DNA from: a virus
Taxonomy: Duplodnaviria; Heunggongvirae; Uroviricota; Caudoviricetes
DNA length: 21,396 nucleotides
Reading direction: 5' to 3' (one strand)
IMG/VR virus record: IMGVR_UViG_2531839486_000009
Below are positions 914 through 7,693 of the stretch, piece after piece. Under the pieces are notes generated by a model. It searched no databases and was not told the origin of the DNA. It saw only the letters and a list, made by a program, of their open reading frames with translations. The position numbers and the translations under genes were made by a program. Numbering within the stretch: position 1 is the stretch's first letter; the number at the start of each line of letters is the position of its first letter.

Positions 914-1348
914 GTGCGGGTATTACTTCGACCTGTTCTGGTACCGGAACTCGGGCTGGTGATCGTTAAGCCGGGCCGTGAATCCATGCCGGTATTCCAC
1001 AATACCCGGGTACTGGTGGAGCCGGAACCGAAAAGCATGCGTAATCTGTCGTCCGGGGTCGTTCCTGCCGTTCGCCAGCCGCTGGCGGAGGATAAATCAT
1101 TACTGCCATTTTTCAGTAACGCACGGGTGATTCGTGCTGCTGGTGGTGCTGGTGCATTGTCTGACTGGCTGTTGCGCCATATTAAATCCTGCCAGTGGCC
1201 ACACGGCGATTATCATCACAGGAAACCGTCATTCACCGTTATGGTACCGGCGCAATGGTGTTGTGCTGGCACTGCGACAACCAGCTGCGGACCAGACTCC
1301 GAATCACTCGGCAACTTGCTCACAAAACCTGTCAGCATGGATGATTGA
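914..1348 (+). CDS. hypothetical protein; possibly N-terminal part of a split DUF968/YdfU-like gene
   Basis: GTG 914 preceded by GGAGG at 905-909 with 4-nt spacing. Overlaps the following reading frame by more than 200 nt. Confidence 0.45.
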   Translation: MRVLLRPVLVPELGLVIVKPGRESMPVFHNTRVLVEPEPKSMRNLSSGVVPAVRQPLAEDKSLLPFFSNARVIRAAGGAGALSDWLLRHIKSCQWPHGDYHHRKPSFTVMVPAQWCCAGTATTSCGPDSESLGNLLTKPVSMDD

Positions 1349-1958
1349 CGTCATCGGTCACGCAATAAGCGGTACGCAGGAGCGTGAATTATCTTTGGCT
1401 GAATTATCCTGGTGGGCGGTCCGCAATCAGGTGGCGGACGCGCTACCGGAAGCGGTATTACGTCGTTCGCTGGGGTTGCGTGCAGAAAAAATCCGCTCAA
1501 TGTACCGTGAAAGCGACATCGTACCGGGAGAGCAGACCGCCACCAGCATACTGAAACAGCGCACAAAAAATCTTGCGCCGCTGCCTCACGCCCACCAGCA
1601 ACAGAACCCACCACAGGAAAAGACGGTGGTCAGCATTGCCGTTGATCCTGAGTCTCCGGAATCTTTCATGAAACGACCTAAACGTCGCCGCTGGGTTAAC
1701 GAGAAATACACACGCTGGGTGAAGACACAGCCGTGTGCGTGTTGTAGTAAGCCAGCCGACGATCCCCATCACCTGATTGGTCATGGTCAGGGCGGAATGG
1801 GAACAAAATCCCACGATATTTTCACGCTACCGCTGTGTCGGGAGCATCACAACGAGCTTCATGCGGATCCGCTGGCGTTCGAAGAAAAGCATGGTTCTCA
1901 GGTTGATTTAATTTTTCGTTTTCTTGATCACGCCTTTGCAACTGGCGTGCTTGGGTAA
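1341..1958 (+). CDS. DUF968 (YdfU-like) prophage protein, Cys/His-rich C-terminal region
   Basis: Translation ...KRPKRRRWVNEKYTRWVKTQPCACCSKPADDPHHLIGHGQGGMGTKSHDIFTLPLCREHHNELHADP... fits my recollection of the DUF968/YdfU family found next to Q in lambdoid prophages. Start placed at ATG 1341, which overlaps the stop of the previous ORF; the tool ORF opens at 1134 in the same frame. Confidence 0.55.
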   Translation: MIDVIGHAISGTQERELSLAELSWWAVRNQVADALPEAVLRRSLGLRAEKIRSMYRESDIVPGEQTATSILKQRTKNLAPLPHAHQQQNPPQEKTVVSIAVDPESPESFMKRPKRRRWVNEKYTRWVKTQPCACCSKPADDPHHLIGHGQGGMGTKSHDIFTLPLCREHHNELHADPLAFEEKHGSQVDLIFRFLDHAFATGVLG

Positions 1959-1970
1959 AAGAGGTGACTG

Positions 1971-2345
1971 ATGCTCATAGATTTGGTTTTACCTTACCCG
2001 CCGACGGTGAACACCTACTGGCGACGCCGTGGCAGCACATATTTTGTCTCAAAAGCCGGTGAGCGTTATCGCCGGGCTGTGGCGCTTATTGTTCGCCAGC
2101 AGCGGCTGAAATTAAGCCTGTCCGGAAGGCTGGCGATAAAGGTGATTGCAGAGCCACCGGATAAGCGTCGTCGCGACCTGGACAATATCCTGAAAGCACC
2201 GCTGGATGCGCTGACGCATGCGGGAGTGTTAATGGACGATGAGCAGTTTGATGAAATCAATATCGTTCGTGGTCAGCCAGTATCTGGTGGACGTATGGGG
2301 GTGAAGATTTACCCCATAATGCATGAAGAGCAGGTCAAAAAATGA
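1971..2345 (+). CDS. rusA: Holliday junction resolvase RusA
   Basis: 124 aa; AAGAGG RBS before ATG 1971. Translation contains ...PPDKRRRDLDNILKAPLDALTHAGVLMDDEQ..., matching the conserved RusA core (PDRRRRDLDN...DALT.AG...DD) as I recall it from E. coli RusA. Confidence 0.9.
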   Translation: MLIDLVLPYPPTVNTYWRRRGSTYFVSKAGERYRRAVALIVRQQRLKLSLSGRLAIKVIAEPPDKRRRDLDNILKAPLDALTHAGVLMDDEQFDEINIVRGQPVSGGRMGVKIYPIMHEEQVKK

Positions 2346-3163
2346 AACTGGAAGATTTACCGAAATACTACTCCCCAAAATCCCCTTGCCTGACCGATGC
2401 ATCGGCCTCAACGTCAAAAGATGCGCTGAGTATCACTGATGTGATGGCCGCGCAGGGCATGACACAGAATCGGGCTGAGATGGGGTTTTCTGCGTTCCTG
2501 GGGAAAATGGGCATCAGTATGAATGACAGGGCGCGGGCAACAGAATTACTGGCAGATTATGCACTCAGTCGGTGCGATCGTGTGGCGGCGTTGAGAAAAC
2601 TTCCGGCAGAAATAAAACCGTTAGTGATGCGCATTATGGCTTCGTACGCTTTTGAGGATTATGCCCGCAGCGCAGCGAGTAAAAAGCAGTGCCCTTGTTG
2701 CTATGGGGAAAAATTTATTGAAAGCGTAGTTTTTACAAACAAGGTCCAGTATCCGGATGGTAAGCCGCCGGTATGGGCAAAGTGTACGAAAGGTGTGTAT
2801 CCGTCTTACTGGGAAGAATGGAAAAAAGTCAGGGAGGTGGTAAAAGTTGCCTGTCCGGAGTGTGGCGGAAAGGGTGAGGTTTCCACCGCCTGTAAGGATT
2901 GCCGTGGGCGTGGTGTCGCCATTCATCGTGAAGAGTCGGTAAAACGTGGTATGCCTGTTATCAGAGACTGCCAGCGTTGTGGTGGTCGTGGCTATGAAAG
3001 ACTACCATCAACGGAGGCATTTAATGCTATATGCGAGGTGACAAACCAGATAACACGCGCGTCATGGGAAAAAACAGTTAAGAAATTCTATGATGCGCTG
3101 GTGACCCGGTTTGATATTGAAGAAGCATGGGCTGAGCGGCAGTTAAAAAAGGTAACTAGGTAA
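2342..3163 (+). CDS. late-gene antiterminator Q-like protein with zinc-finger motifs
   Basis: 273 aa; start overlaps rusA stop (ATGA). Sits immediately upstream of a pR'-like promoter and tR'-like terminator, the invariant position of Q. Contains CPCC plus three CxxCxGxG motifs. N-terminus MKLEDLPKYYSPKSP... resembles Q/QuuQ-type proteins as I recall them. Confidence 0.65.
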   Translation: MKLEDLPKYYSPKSPCLTDASASTSKDALSITDVMAAQGMTQNRAEMGFSAFLGKMGISMNDRARATELLADYALSRCDRVAALRKLPAEIKPLVMRIMASYAFEDYARSAASKKQCPCCYGEKFIESVVFTNKVQYPDGKPPVWAKCTKGVYPSYWEEWKKVREVVKVACPECGGKGEVSTACKDCRGRGVAIHREESVKRGMPVIRDCQRCGGRGYERLPSTEAFNAICEVTNQITRASWEKTVKKFYDALVTRFDIEEAWAERQLKKVTR

Positions 3164-3168
3164 CAAGG

Positions 3169-3196
3169 TTGATTTTTCCGGAATCTGTGGTAAATT
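3169..3196 (+). promoter_or_regulatory. pR'-like late promoter (sigma-70; -35 TTGATT, 16-nt spacer, extended -10 TGgTAAATT)
   Basis: Seen directly 6 nt after the Q stop. The -10 hexamer TAAATT is the same as lambda pR' as I recall it. Confidence 0.55.
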
Positions 3197-3245
3197 CGTC
3201 ATAACGATGGGCGTTTTATGCCTGGCGTTAGAAGAGTTTCTACAA

Positions 3246-3268
3246 CCCGCCGCTGAGCGGGTTTTTTA
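3246..3268 (+). terminator. tR'-like intrinsic terminator
   Basis: cccgc-cgctga-gcggg hairpin followed by tttttt, about 50 nt downstream of the predicted late promoter. Confidence 0.55.
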
Positions 3269-3306
3269 TTGCGAAATTAATTACGGACCGTTATTATTCT
3301 GCTCCC

Positions 3307-3382
3307 GGCCCTTTAGCTCAGTGGTGAGAGCGAGCGACTCATAATCGCCAGGTCGCTGGTTCAAATCCAGCAAGGGCCACCA
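3307..3382 (+). tRNA. tRNA with CAT anticodon (tRNA-Ile2-like or tRNA-Met)
   Basis: Cloverleaf read by eye: acceptor GGCCCTT/AAGGGCC, D-arm GCTC..GAGC, anticodon loop CTCATAA, T-arm GGTCGCTGGTTCAAATCCAGC, CCA encoded. Resembles E. coli ileX-type tRNA from memory. Confidence 0.85.
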
Positions 3383-3483
3383 TCACAAACCGCCATTAGC
3401 TTATCAGGAAGAGCAGACGACACGATAACAGGGTTGTTGGTGCGGGGGGCGGGTCCCCGATGGCGGTCCATTATCGGTATTCA

Positions 3484-3560
3484 GCGTTGTTAGCTCAGCC
3501 GGACAGAGCAATTGCCTTCTAAGCAATCGGTCACTGGTTCGAATCCAGTACAGCGCGCCA
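3484..3560 (+). tRNA. tRNA-Arg (anticodon TCT)
   Basis: Acceptor GCGTTGT/ACAGCGC (one G-U pair), D-arm AGCTCAGCCGGACAGAGC, anticodon stem-loop ATTGC-CTTCTAA-GCAAT, T-loop GGTTCGAATCC, CCA encoded. Confidence 0.85.
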
Positions 3561-3697
3561 TATTCATTCTTCCAGATTCCTTCCGGCAGAGCCTTATACT
3601 GAAATATACCTGGCTCAGGATATTGTTGAAAATATTATATGTTTGTCAAAAATAAAAGTTCTGTTAAGTATTGATTGAATATTTGTTATACGGTCTA

Positions 3698-4024
3698 ATG
3701 GTTTTTTCAGCATTAAATATTTATCATTCATATGGTGTGGGTAGAGTGAATATTGATGAGGCGTCGGGGTGTTTCATCCTTAGGCAGCGTATTGATATAG
3801 TCAATGCAGCACGAGCAAAGGCCTTCAGCCGTTTGACAGTTTTGTTCTGTACTCCTGATCGTCTTTCGGGAAGAGACGTTATTATTCTGAATAGTGATGC
3901 TATACAGAGGGTTTGCGATGAGTTCATGGTTGCTAATTCAGAATTATTTGCTCTTGTTCAGGAGTACAACAGAATAGCCAGGACCTGTGGTATGGATGAA
4001 CTTCGGATTACTCATCTGGGGTAG
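3698..4024 (+). CDS. hypothetical protein in AT-rich moron island
   Basis: Tool ORF 3671..4024. No convincing SD before any candidate start (TTG 3671, ATG 3698, GTG 3746). No motif recognised. Confidence 0.3.
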   Translation: MVFSALNIYHSYGVGRVNIDEASGCFILRQRIDIVNAARAKAFSRLTVLFCTPDRLSGRDVIILNSDAIQRVCDEFMVANSELFALVQEYNRIARTCGMDELRITHLG

Positions 4025-4416
4025 ATACATATCTGGATTATCACCTGTTACGGTAAAAAGTGATTGCTTACTGTTTTTGTGAATGGCATTGCAGCAGCCG
4101 GATAATGTCAGTGCTGGCTGACGGTGTGCTGGTGGCGGGTGTGGTGGTTGTTGCTTTCCCGTTGCTGAAAAAGAAAACGCCAGACTGTTAGCCGGGTATC
4201 AGTTAGCGGGAGAAATTTTTAAATACTTCACAATTCAGGCGGTTGACTGTTGTCTGGTTTGCGGGGAGTTTGTTAAAAGAAACTGGCATGGTGAATCCCC
4301 CTGTGCGGTGGGGCAATCAGCGAGTAGGTATATGGGATAATCGCGGATTCAGGTGCTGGTACTGAATTCACCGGGAGGCACCCGACACCATGCAATGGCA
4401 CATAGCGCCACTCTCC

Positions 4417-4440
4417 AGCCCCTCTCCGGAGGGGCTGTTT
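4417..4440 (+). terminator. GC-rich hairpin with downstream T-rich tract (terminator-like)
   Basis: agcccctc-tccg-gaggggct is a perfect 8-bp stem; followed by gtttatattgatttt. Lies about 35 nt beyond the 3' end of the minus-strand gene 4472..4807. Confidence 0.45.
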
Positions 4441-4471
4441 ATATTGATTTTGTCAGATGTGAGTAAACTCC

Positions 4472-4807
4472 TTATGGACTTTGTTGTTTTAGTCCATAAG
4501 GACATATTTGCAGAGTGCAACGGTTATTAAAGCATTCATTCAATACGTTATCTGTATTTGTAGGGCATTCCTGGCTGTTTTTGATTAAATTCCAGAATGT
4601 TTTATTGAATGGTACTACGTTGTAAATGGTTACAGGTAGCACTTTGTTATTGAGCATGATGCCTGTGTGAGTCAGTGTAAATATACTTTCAGGAGGTAAG
4701 AAAGCATCCGATTGATACCAGATTATTAATTTTATTTTACTCCATATGACTGAAAAAGATATTCCGCATGATGGCTGGATAACTGTATCAATCACAATCC
4801 ACTTCAT
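4472..4807 (-). CDS. hypothetical protein (111 aa), orphan antisense moron gene with Cys-rich C-terminus
   Basis: Minus-strand ORF with a near-ideal RBS (AAGGA, 6-nt spacing, from + strand ctttcctt at 4811-4818) and a plausible AT-rich promoter containing TATACT upstream. C-terminal C-x10-C-x4-C-x4-C cluster. Confidence 0.6.
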
Positions 4808-5066
4808 TTACTTTCCTTGTTTATGCCTTGCTGGTGATGTTCTGAAAAGTATAAATGATATTTTTGAATTAAACCATAGAGCAGAATTATTTTTCTGATG
4901 TTGTTTATTGTTTATTTAAATACAGGGTGGTTTATATCTCGTCTTGTAGTTTATCCATGCATATCTGCTTGATAATCAGGTTTTTATTTAAGGTATGGTT
5001 TTGTGTTTTTTCTGTATTACATGTCAGGTATTTTAAAGAATTATTTTTCAGATGGTGGAAAGAACC

Positions 5067-5255
5067 ATGGCATTTAAACACTATGATGTTGTCAGGGCGG
5101 CGCCGCCGTCAGATCTTGCGGAAAAGCTGACACATAAACTGAAAGAGGGCTGGCAGCCGTTTGGTAGTCCGGTGGCCATAACCCCTTATACCCTGATGCA
5201 GGCGATTGCAGCAGAAGGTGATGTGGTGGTCAGCGGTGCAACTGAGCCGGAGTGA
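5067..5255 (+). CDS. small conserved phage protein (possibly DUF1737-like), 62 aa
   Basis: ATG 5067 preceded by GGAAAGA; translation [62 protein letters not shown]. Family name is recollection only. Confidence 0.45.
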   Translation: MAFKHYDVVRAAPPSDLAEKLTHKLKEGWQPFGSPVAITPYTLMQAIAAEGDVVVSGATEPE

Positions 5256-5413
5256 TACTACGTCATCGTACTGGCCCGGCATTCCAGGCCATAAAAGACA
5301 GTCTGGCAGTGGGACTAAATGCACTGACGCTGACGGATATTACCAAAAATGCAACGTATGGCGTTGAGATAGAAAGTCTGGTGCTGGAGATAAATGCACC
5401 GGCATCATCATAA
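5252..5413 (+). CDS. possible small ORF (53 codons, GTG start overlapping previous stop)
   Basis: Open frame [53 protein letters not shown]. No ATG and poor SD spacing; could be the remnant 3' end of a deleted larger gene. Confidence 0.2.
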
Positions 5414-5498
5414 AAAGTGAGCCAGTCAAATGGAAGGTATCGTTAAACTCACCGGTAGTGTCAGTGGGTCGTCTGAGACGCTTGCATGAGTTATCAGA

Positions 5499-5530
5499 GC
5501 CATCAGTAGTTAACTGGTGGCTTTTTTATT
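5499..5530 (+). terminator. intrinsic terminator upstream of lysis cassette
   Basis: 8-bp stem gccatcag / ctggtggc (one G-U pair), 7-nt loop, then ttttttatt; ends about 30 nt before the holin start. Confidence 0.5.
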
Positions 5531-5562
5531 GTTGTCAGCTTCCGGATAACGGGAGACGGGGT

Positions 5563-5778
5563 ATGGACCAGATGGAAAAAATCACAACAGGTGTGTCATA
5601 CACCACGTCAGCGGTGGGAACGGGCTACTGGTTCCTGCAGTTGCTGGACAGGGTTTCCCCGTCTCAGTGGGCGGCAATAGGCGTGCTGGGGAGTCTGCTG
5701 TTTGGGCTGCTGACATATCTGACTAACCTGTATTTCAAAATCAGAGAGGACCGTCGTAAGGCTGCACGGGGAGAGTAA
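5563..5778 (+). CDS. class II pinholin, phage 21 S-like (71 aa, dual start)
   Basis: GGGAGACGGGG RBS before ATG 5563. Translation [71 protein letters not shown] closely matches my recollection of S21; two TM segments; Met1/Met4 dual-start arrangement. Confidence 0.9.
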
Positions 5779-5782
5779 TTCA

Positions 5783-6133
5783 ATGACTCAAAACTATGAA
5801 CTGATTGTGAAAGGGATCCGCAATTTTGAGAATAAAGTTACGGTAACTTTAGCGTTACGGGACAAAAAACGCTTTGACGGTGAAATTTTTGACCTGGACA
5901 TCTCGCTGGACCGTGTTGAAGGTGCCGCGCTGGAGTTTTATGAGGCAGCAGCCAGAATGAGCATCAGACAGGTCTTCCTGGATGTTGCTGCCGGGTTATG
6001 TGAAGGGGATGAGCAGTCGCCGGAAAAGCGCCCCGTAATTTTAGAGGCGCAGAATGTATGGATAACCTACAAAGGAAAGCTACCGGGAAGAATTACTGGT
6101 TCTCTGAAGACTCCTCCGGAATCACAACCTTAA
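5783..6133 (+). CDS. hypothetical protein (116 aa) between holin and endolysin
   Basis: ATG 5783 preceded by GGGGAGAG (7-nt spacing), 4 nt after the holin stop. Predicted soluble, no TM or signal peptide seen; no motif recognised. Confidence 0.6.
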   Translation: MTQNYELIVKGIRNFENKVTVTLALRDKKRFDGEIFDLDISLDRVEGAALEFYEAAARMSIRQVFLDVAAGLCEGDEQSPEKRPVILEAQNVWITYKGKLPGRITGSLKTPPESQP

Positions 6134-7219: not shown

Positions 7220-7513
7220 TTATTGTGAGCAATACACACGCGCTTCCAGTGGAGTATAAATGCCTAAAGTAATAAAACCGAGAAATCCATTTACGAATGT
7301 TTGCTGGGTTTCTGTTTTAACAACATTTTCTGCGCCGCCACAAATTTTGGCTGCATCAACAGTTTTCTCCTGTCCAATTCCCGAAACGAAGAAATGATGG
7401 GTGATGGTTTCCTTTGGTGTTACTGCTGTCGGTTTGTTTCCAACAGTAAACGTCTGTTGAGCACATCCTGTAATAAGCATTGCCAGAGCGGCAGAAAACA
7501 ACATTTTTTTCAT
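7220..7513 (-). CDS. bor: Bor lipoprotein (serum-resistance moron, Iss family)
   Basis: Start at the internal MKKM of tool ORF 7220..7561. Translation MKKMLFSAALAMLITGCAQQTFTV...ETITHHFFVSGIGQEKTVDAAKICGGAENVVKTETQQTFVNGFLGFITLGIYTPLEARVYCSQ is near-identical to lambda Bor as I recall it; lipobox LITGC. Confidence 0.9.
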   Translation of the reverse strand: MKKMLFSAALAMLITGCAQQTFTVGNKPTAVTPKETITHHFFVSGIGQEKTVDAAKICGGAENVVKTETQQTFVNGFLGFITLGIYTPLEARVYCSQ

Positions 7514-7693
7514 CTTATTATCCTGCATTGTTAAAAACGGCAGAATCCTATGTGACAACAATTAAACGATAGTTAAATGGATTGATGAAAATTAAAACTA
7601 TATAGGTGGATGCTCAGCCTATCGGAGGTAGTCAGGATTTGAATGTCAGTCTGTTGTCGGCATTCTGGCAACGCAATTTGGATAAAGCGGGGA

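Follow-up and report, generated by a model that had tools for sequence, protein, structure and literature searches.

The cargo island between the Q and holin genes of a lambdoid Escherichia coli prophage probably consists of mostly known units, including the iraL anti-adaptor gene and an STnc100/PasD-family small RNA gene

We analyzed the interval from position 3561 to 5530 of a 21,396-nucleotide (nt) stretch of viral DNA (IMG/VR virus record IMGVR_UViG_2531839486_000009; Duplodnaviria, Heunggongvirae, Uroviricota, Caudoviricetes). The whole stretch, hereafter the window, comes from a lambdoid Escherichia coli prophage, of which it represents the late region. Our results indicate that the interval is very probably a cargo ('moron') region of a lambdoid late operon, the same module as that of the potB prophage of the uropathogenic E. 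coli strain CFT073, and that it is composed of independent, mostly known units. Identified from its sequence, the antisense gene of the interval is iraL, an already characterized gene for an anti-adaptor of the RssB protein, and a small RNA (sRNA) gene of the STnc100/PasD family converges on it from the other strand. The content of the island is mostly known already, and it is no new kind of system. Sequence identities, family memberships, synteny and a deletion in an esterase gene were observed directly, and the activity of IraL and its transcription start are taken from published experiments on the identical CFT073 protein.

The protein encoded by the antisense gene scored 162 bits against the NCBIfam family NF007393 (cut-off 121) over residues 1 to 110, and a ribosome-binding site, AAGGAAAG, is located five nt 5' of its ATG, as an earlier note made from the sequence alone had recognized. 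The same protein accession, WP_000871291.1, is common to CFT073 and to a 100%-identical genome. The protein is also identical to the UniRef entry IRAM_ECO27 and homologous to the solved N-domain of IraM (8TWD, E 9e-32). A survey of nt identity to iraL in complete-genome records gave a bimodal distribution, with 1,442 records at 95% or above and 3,331 at 60-80%, the range that contains K-12 iraM (about 70%). The class with at least 95% identity occurs in about a quarter of complete E. coli genomes, and the split into iraL and iraM classes has been described (PMC4045071). The earlier note could recognize none of the open reading frames (ORFs) of the interval; this no longer holds for the antisense gene, which matches IraL (PMC4045071), nor for 5067-5413, which consists of the two ends of nanS-p, an esterase gene.

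Hryckowian et al. (2014; PMC4045071) reported that IraL of CFT073 increases both the level and the stability of RpoS in log phase. In the same paper, IraL was 58.9% identical in amino acids (aa) to IraM of K-12, and it was found to bind only the N-domain of RssB and to act in log phase, whereas IraM binds both RssB domains; the structure of IraM with RssB is also known (PMC10844676; 8TWD). The window shares with CFT073 the identical protein, the prophage module, the orientation, the neighbors and the transcription start sequence of iraL. In PMC4045071, the CFT073 site was named the 'potB genomic island'; it was not described there as a lambdoid prophage's Q-to-holin (stx-equivalent) slot. K-12 IraM resembles IraL in its membership of NF007393, in its homologous N-terminal beta-barrel domain, in its target, RssB, and in the outcome, which is the stabilization of RpoS. 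It differs from IraL in sequence, with about 59% aa identity and 67-70% nt identity, and the K-12 iraM gene, which is induced by Mg2+ starvation, is a neighbor of icd/e14 and does not belong to a late operon.

The sequence obtained by rapid amplification of 5' cDNA ends (5'RACE) in CFT073, ACATCACCAGCAAGGCATAAACAAGGAAACCA (PMC4045071), agrees with the CFT073 genome and places the start of iraL transcription at window position 4840 on the minus strand. Its first 29 nt are the same in the window, and the 2 of its 32 nt that differ lie between the Shine-Dalgarno sequence and the ATG. We propose that iraL is read from its own sigma-70 promoter, opposite to late transcription, so that it would be expressed in the lysogen independently of Q. 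The earlier note had suggested that the cargo is either expressed from its own signals in the lysogen or amplified on induction by Q antitermination; for the antisense gene, lysogen expression from its own promoter has been demonstrated experimentally in CFT073, which encodes the identical protein. IraL would then bind to the receiver domain at the N-terminus of the adaptor RssB, which in turn could not hand RpoS to ClpXP, and RpoS and the general stress response would be raised in exponential growth.

The DNA upstream of the iraL coding sequence (4808-5051, including the 5' untranslated region and the core promoter) has a GC content of 27.9%. A Fur box was sought 5' of iraL because IraL is raised in a fur mutant of CFT073 (PMC7157518), and this candidate was rejected, the best match being no better than those in shuffled sequences. 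At the other end of the gene, an 11-bp inverted repeat (TCCTTATGGAC ... GTCCATAAGGA; 4472-4506, minus strand) spans the final iraL codons and the stop codon and accounts for the four residues (QQSP) that K-12 IraM lacks at its C-terminus. This inverted repeat might act as a weak terminator or as a stabilizing 3' hairpin.

The sRNA gene matches the STnc100 family over the whole Rfam model (Table 1), and its terminator hairpin coincides with the terminal stem of that model. By this correspondence, the first of the two hairpin/T-tract sites on the plus strand, both of which the earlier note had correctly located, forms the 3' terminus of an sRNA from a known family. The transcript likely covers 4286-4446, with an extended -10 element (TGtTAAAAG) at 4271-4279. 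The 5' half of the window sRNA aligns with PasD2 of E2348/69, an enteropathogenic E. coli (EPEC) strain, and the 5' end of PasD2 determined by RNA-seq falls on window position 4286, seven bases 3' of the extended -10. The PasD2 coordinates were taken from the supplement of bioRxiv 10.64898/2026.05.13.724894 and applied to the E2348/69 locus. In that study, Zhu, Shabalina and Storz related STnc100 to PasD1 and PasD2 of EPEC. PasD1 and PasD2 are Hfq-dependent sRNAs that were validated by northern blot and by RIL-seq (ligation and sequencing of interacting RNAs; PMC8550237), and EcOnc27 is an expressed, Hfq-associated base-pairing sRNA (as cited in PMC12711010). The window sRNA resembles PasD1/PasD2 of E2348/69 and EcOnc27/sRNA103 of enterohemorrhagic E. 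coli (EHEC) in its place in the late region, its 5' half, its promoter and its intrinsic terminator. Having an extended -10 promoter and an intrinsic terminator of its own, the window sRNA (about 4286-4446) is presumably an Hfq-dependent base-pairing regulator.

In the Shiga toxin 2 (Stx2) phage 933W, an STnc100 copy lies 75 nt 3' of stx2B and scores 208 bits, compared with 123 bits for the window copy; this location after stx2B was also reported in PMC12370729 and PMC12711010. STnc100 is further present in the Stx2c prophage, CFT073, the PP2 prophage of E2348/69 and phage mEp460_ev081, downstream of stx or DUF3927 and upstream of nanS-p. Related late regions can contain two STnc100 copies in one Q-to-holin interval (2534-2727 and 3003-3191 in one locus, 1344-1556 and 4650-4839 in another). 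A minus-strand ORF at 4273-4401 lies wholly inside the Rfam match of the window, has no match in Pfam, NCBIfam or PHROGs, and is represented in the Prokaryotic Genome Annotation Pipeline (PGAP) annotation by a pseudogene at 4276-4401 marked 'incomplete'. We conclude that this ORF is probably no gene.

The comparison with 933W defined the position that is equivalent to the toxin genes. Homology with 933W (blastn) ends at window position 3568, which is position 1380 of the 933W locus, right after argO, and restarts at window position 4228, which is position 2749 of the 933W locus, 46 nt 3' of stx2B. The stx2A and stx2B genes occupy 1463-2703 of that locus, and the breakpoints therefore indicate that the window segment 3569-4227 stands in place of the stx2 promoter and stx2AB. 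Searches of Pfam, NCBIfam and PHROGs matched no ORF of the interval to a family of Stx A or B, in agreement with the earlier note. That note had placed the whole island in the stx-equivalent slot, and this is right for 3569-4227, which replaces stx2AB exactly, but not for the iraL cassette. The cassette is inserted at a different, second point between STnc100 and nanS-p, where 933W carries AsxR on the minus strand; thus, iraL adjoins the toxin position and does not replace stx.

The window and 933W have the same backbone of Q, pR', tRNAs, cargo, STnc100, a minus-strand element, nanS-p, a hairpin and the holin gene S. They differ in their cargo, with stx2AB and AsxR in 933W where the window has orf92 with DUF3927 and iraL, respectively; in addition, nanS-p of the window is internally deleted, and the ORFs located between nanS-p and S in 933W are missing. 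The possibility that AsxR of 933W is a relic of the 3' end of an IraM-family gene was rejected, because AsxR has no homology to iraL or to the ira gene of the Stx2c phage. The Stx2c prophage of O157:H7, like the window, has an antisense IraM-family gene between STnc100 and nanS-p, convergent with the sRNA gene (3501-4046 of that locus, corresponding to window 4257-4807) and directly adjacent to stx2c. The 3' ends of the sRNA and ira genes are 10 nt apart in that prophage and 25 nt apart in the window. The Stx2c ira gene is 78% identical in nt to iraL, representing a third sequence class, and coexists with stx2c and an intact esterase gene. The sub-slot occupied by iraL and nanS-p in the window appears to be a hot spot of exchange. 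Other cargo was seen at this place elsewhere: phage mEp460_ev081 has a TolA-like protein (4358-4786 of that locus), and another E. coli contig has an AraC-type regulator and an IS3 element in addition to a TolA-like protein (810-1238 and 1933-2658 of that locus).

The stx2AB-equivalent segment is occupied by orf92 and a DUF3927 membrane peptide, a unit with a predicted promoter. The start of orf92 at the GTG codon 3746 is fixed by homologues of 92-95 aa. The protein belongs to phrog_2873 (E 4e-70) and is labelled 'hypothetical protein' on more than 1000 contigs, and RefSeq leaves the gene unannotated. Compared with a variant of 58% identity, the ratio of nonsynonymous to synonymous substitution (dN/dS) was 0.27 at a dS of 1.1 and the position of the stop codon was unchanged, showing that orf92 is a real gene. 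It has no match in Pfam, NCBIfam or PADLOC. An AlphaFold2 model with a pLDDT of 84 showed two long helices forming a generic helical hairpin, and Foldseek searches of PDB and BFVD returned only generic helical hairpins, none of them significant (best E 0.23 and 0.36). A profile search among 1.8 billion proteins found 20 clusters at 50% identity, all of unannotated small proteins, and a scan of 185,579 species genomes found 3 loci; the family is limited to Enterobacteriaceae. The linkage of orf92, DUF3927 and STnc100 is kept in two diverged variants and in phage mEp460_ev081.

The DUF3927 peptide, which is small and hydrophobic, is WP_000562553.1 both in CFT073 and in the 100%-identical genome, and a DUF3927 gene also precedes PasD2 in E2348/69. 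It falls in phrog_1470, labelled 'TciB-like', a label for which the literature searched (TciB/DUF3927) yielded no source. Neither a signal peptide nor a toxin-like domain was detected in the orf92 protein or the DUF3927 peptide.

The two sense ORFs next to the iraL cassette are the ends of a gene for a 9-O-acetyl-sialic-acid esterase of the SASA family. The ORF at 5067-5255 corresponds to positions 1-58 of the 634 positions of phrog_143 and is a PGAP pseudogene 'missing C-terminus'. Window 5074-5286 aligns to nt 8-220 of the intact esterase gene of E2348/69, and window 5271-5416 aligns to 5127-5272 of the E2348/69 locus with 91.8% identity, which is about the last 140 nt of the gene. These alignments of both ends point to an internal deletion of about 1.49 kb. 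No uninterrupted frame of about 645 aa with a catalytic SASA domain was found, and the sequence excludes a full-length frame across 5067-5413. Because the catalytic SASA part (about 1.49 kb) is gone, no esterase can be made. Compared with the NanS-p sialate O-acetylesterases (yjhS-like, DUF1737 plus SASA), the window has kept both gene ends in the right order and place, and the gene is inactivated through the 1.49-kb internal deletion.

The second hairpin, close to the holin gene, is, judged by its conservation, part of a conserved holin-upstream module. Window 5494-5778 is 93% identical to 5762-6046 of the 933W locus, a segment that ends with S, and the equivalent hairpin of E2348/69 carries one compensatory change from A-T to G-C. 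This hairpin probably prevents moron transcripts of the lysogen from extending into the lysis genes, and the Q-modified polymerase would read through it on induction. EPEC and Stx phages carry a minus-strand sRNA of the PasA/PasC type between the esterase and holin genes. Such an sRNA between the esterase remnant and the holin gene of the window was considered and rejected: window 5414-5562 lacks the segment that encodes PasA in E2348/69, and the second hairpin is therefore no Pas terminator.

The layout given in the earlier note was confirmed in its main lines: the interval lies between the Q, pR' and tRNA block and the holin gene, and short sense ORFs are present (Table 1). It is also AT-rich compared with its flanks, although patchily. 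The GC content of 3561-5530 is 41.6%, compared with 50.6% for the whole window, and equals the minimum of all 1970-bp sliding windows. The low values come from 3561-3697 (30.7%) and from the 605-bp iraL cassette at 4447-5051 (31.9%), which is the block of lowest GC content of that length in the window (605-bp mean 50.5%, sd 4.0); the DUF3927 gene (50.8%), the sRNA gene (54.7%) and the esterase remnants (47-55%) have ordinary values. The low GC content of the cassette is typical of horizontally acquired, independently regulated morons. A scan of 3100-5800 found 7 terminator-like sites, compared with 2.8 +/- 1.9 in shuffled sequences. The ORFs at 4927-5130 (plus strand) and 3724-3927 (minus strand) were rejected as genes; they have no match in Pfam, NCBIfam or PHROGs, lie in the promoter region and antisense to orf92, respectively, and were treated as chance ORFs.

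Several complete E. coli chromosomes match window 3200-5800 at 100% identity, and 753 of the 5,426 genomes searched contain 80% or more of this stretch. Window 3265-6122 (2.86 kb) aligns with 97.9% identity to the CFT073 potB prophage, in which the order of Q, tRNAs, DUF3927, the IraM-family gene, the DUF1737 pseudogene and the holin gene is the same. Unlike the window, CFT073 has IS200C between Q and the tRNAs, and its middle tRNA is intact. When the block was aligned with the three tRNAs of CFT073, the window's middle tRNA proved to have diverged from this intact copy in the region of the anticodon arm. The tRNA block at 3307-3560 is 86.6% identical to ileZ-argN-argO of 933W.

The candidate pR'/tR' region directly 3' of Q was assigned by reading its motifs, and its position agrees with the annotated pR' and terminator of 933W; Rfam gave only a sub-threshold match resembling a Trp leader at 3169-3269. 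A strong terminator lies about 65 nt 3' of the candidate pR', a layout that yields a short leader RNA of the 6S/StxS type in lambda and Stx phages. The holin gene is followed by genes for YdfR/DUF1327, lysozyme, Rz, bor/iss (minus strand), an HNH endonuclease and terminase. The gene of the Bor/Iss lipoprotein ('increased serum survival'; 7220-7561, minus strand), antisense just 3' of Rz, is a second, classical, lysogen-expressed moron of the late region. At the left end of the window, a C-terminal fragment of a DDE transposase (PF01609) is found at 48-308, and positions 1-586 are absent from CFT073, where the alignment begins at 587, and from the otherwise near-identical genome.

Table 1. Features of the cargo interval and its surroundings (window coordinates)
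Feature	Position	Strand	Remarks
DUF968 gene	1134-1958		
RusA gene	1971-2345		follows the DUF968 gene
Antiterminator Q	2342-3163		PF03589
Candidate pR' and tR'	3169-3269	+	TTGATT, 16 nt, TGgTAAATT (extended -10); directly 3' of Q; read from sequence
tR' hairpin	3244-3263	+	followed by a T-run
tRNA-Ile2/Met(CAT)	3307-3382	+	ARAGORN, Rfam
Degenerate middle tRNA (argN remnant)	~3390-3470	+	ARAGORN and Rfam find only two tRNAs in the block
tRNA-Arg(TCT)	3484-3560	+	ARAGORN, Rfam
Cargo segment 1	3569-4227	+	exact positional equivalent of the 933W stx2 promoter and stx2AB; holds orf92 and DUF3927
orf92	3746-4024	+	GTG start, 92 aa; longer in-frame starts at 3698 and 3671
DUF3927 small hydrophobic peptide	4060-4191	+	43 aa; PF13064, 95.6 bits (cut-off 25)
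STnc100/PasD-family sRNA gene	4257-4446	+	Rfam RF02076, 123.1 bits (gathering score 47); model 1-206 of 206
sRNA intrinsic terminator hairpin	4416-4437	+	9 pairs, 7 of them G-C, then TTTATATTG
iraL, RssB anti-adaptor of the IraM/IraL family	4472-4807 (start 4807)	-	111 aa; NCBIfam NF007393
iraL 5' untranslated region and core promoter	4808-4853	-	start 4840; -10 TATACT at 4853-4848
AT-rich upstream region of iraL	4854-5051		also upstream of the esterase remnant
nanS-p 5' remnant (SASA-family esterase)	5067-5255 (also read from 5052)	+	DUF1737 domain only; PF08410, 62 bits
nanS-p 3' remnant	5252-5413	+	phrog_143 positions 582-632 of 634; named 'YjhS' in sources
Holin-upstream hairpin and T-run	5496-5524	+	39 nt 5' of the holin start
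Class II holin S, dual-start motif	5563-5778	+	PF04971, 110.6 bits; WP_000372595.1; right border of the island

Several observations weigh against the interval being a CFT073-type module of mostly known units. Over 111 nt, the iraL promoter region differs from that of CFT073 by a 1-nt deletion in the spacer between -35 and -10 (4854-4876), a substitution at -1 and two further substitutions just 5' of the ATG, and the strength of iraL expression in the window could differ as a result. No canonical intrinsic terminator for iraL was found on the minus strand, so that an antisense overlap with the STnc100 sRNA is possible. The 3' half of the window sRNA, including the PasD seed region and the terminator, could not be aligned with PasD2, and since the seed region differs, the targets of PasD2 are not transferable to the window sRNA; moreover, its fold, with a minimum free energy of -63 kcal/mol and a z of -1.8, is only modestly better than those of shuffled sequences. 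Finally, the island does have functionally undescribed content, namely orf92 and the DUF3927 peptide only, and the earlier note's expectation that the interval is a likely site of undescribed function narrows to these two. The orf92 family is tiny and under purifying selection, which means that its product could have a new activity, either directed at the host or in phage exclusion. A function in toxicity, virulence or anti-phage defense, encoded by orf92 and DUF3927 and expressed from their own signals or amplified by Q on induction, would fit the dN/dS value, the lack of any family annotation, the few clusters and loci of orf92, the preserved linkage with STnc100 and the location of both genes exactly at the stx junctions. 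We nevertheless consider it quite unlikely that such a function is what the island carries, because the orf92 protein has no PADLOC match, no significant structural match and only a generic two-helix fold, because no signal peptide or toxin-like domain was detected, because the PHROG label of DUF3927 leads to no paper in the literature searched, and because the dominant, intact and experimentally supported cargo is iraL. Nor was the defense cargo suggested by the earlier note found among 7 ORFs compared with PADLOC at E of 0.01 or less. It is rather doubtful, but conceivable, that orf92 and DUF3927 may form an uncharacterized lysogen-conversion unit that is swapped with stx2AB at the same junctions and travels with STnc100, or that the convergence of STnc100 and ira may couple the sRNA with RpoS.

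The possibility that the interval is merely decayed late-region DNA, without a functional expressed unit, was the outcome that the earlier note had said would speak against its own proposal. The broken esterase gene, the degenerate middle tRNA, the two PGAP pseudogenes and the absence of orf92 from the RefSeq annotation are signs of decay, but decay in this sense describes 5067-5413 only and not the rest of the interval. For the interval as a whole it is extremely improbable, given that iraL is intact, encodes a protein identical to that of the functional CFT073 gene and is at least 95% conserved in 1,442 of the complete-genome records searched, that the sRNA matches the full Rfam model including the terminator, and that orf92 is under purifying selection in an arrangement kept in 753 genomes. 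A different question is whether the antisense gene acts like IraM of K-12, that is, activated by PhoP, induced by Mg2+ starvation and contacting both RssB domains, and not like the log-phase IraL. NCBI gives the protein the name IraM, and it aligns well with the solved N-domain of IraM. In addition, the direct repeat TGTTTAttgttTATTTA at 4902-4918, 62-78 nt 5' of the iraL start, is a candidate PhoP-box-like element with 11 of 12 matches, a value reached by 3% of shuffled sequences. However, this is one weak match in DNA that is very rich in AT, and no regulation of IraL by PhoP has been reported, although K-12 iraM is activated by PhoP. The gene belongs to the iraL sequence class, with at least 95% nt identity to CFT073 and about 70% to K-12 iraM, and its protein has the same sequence as IraL of CFT073, a log-phase anti-adaptor that binds only the N-domain of RssB. 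An IraM-like action of this gene therefore seems improbable to us, and we retain its identification as iraL.

These results have consequences for annotation. The protein called IraM by NCBI is IraL, and the 'pseudogene' over 4273-4401 is the STnc100 gene of the other strand. Likewise, the ORFs at 5067-5413 are esterase debris, and orf92 is a real gene omitted by RefSeq. The convergence of STnc100 and IraM-family genes, whose 3' ends are 10-25 nt apart in the window and in Stx2c phages, could, if true, couple sRNA output and RpoS stabilization via antisense read-through. Taken together, the data indicate that in many prophages of commensal and uropathogenic strains and of Shigella, the Shiga-toxin slot of EHEC phages serves regulators of host physiology, namely an Hfq-type sRNA and an anti-adaptor that stabilizes RpoS. 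IraL alters the degree to which growing cells turn on the general stress response, a property that has been linked to niche and pathotype.

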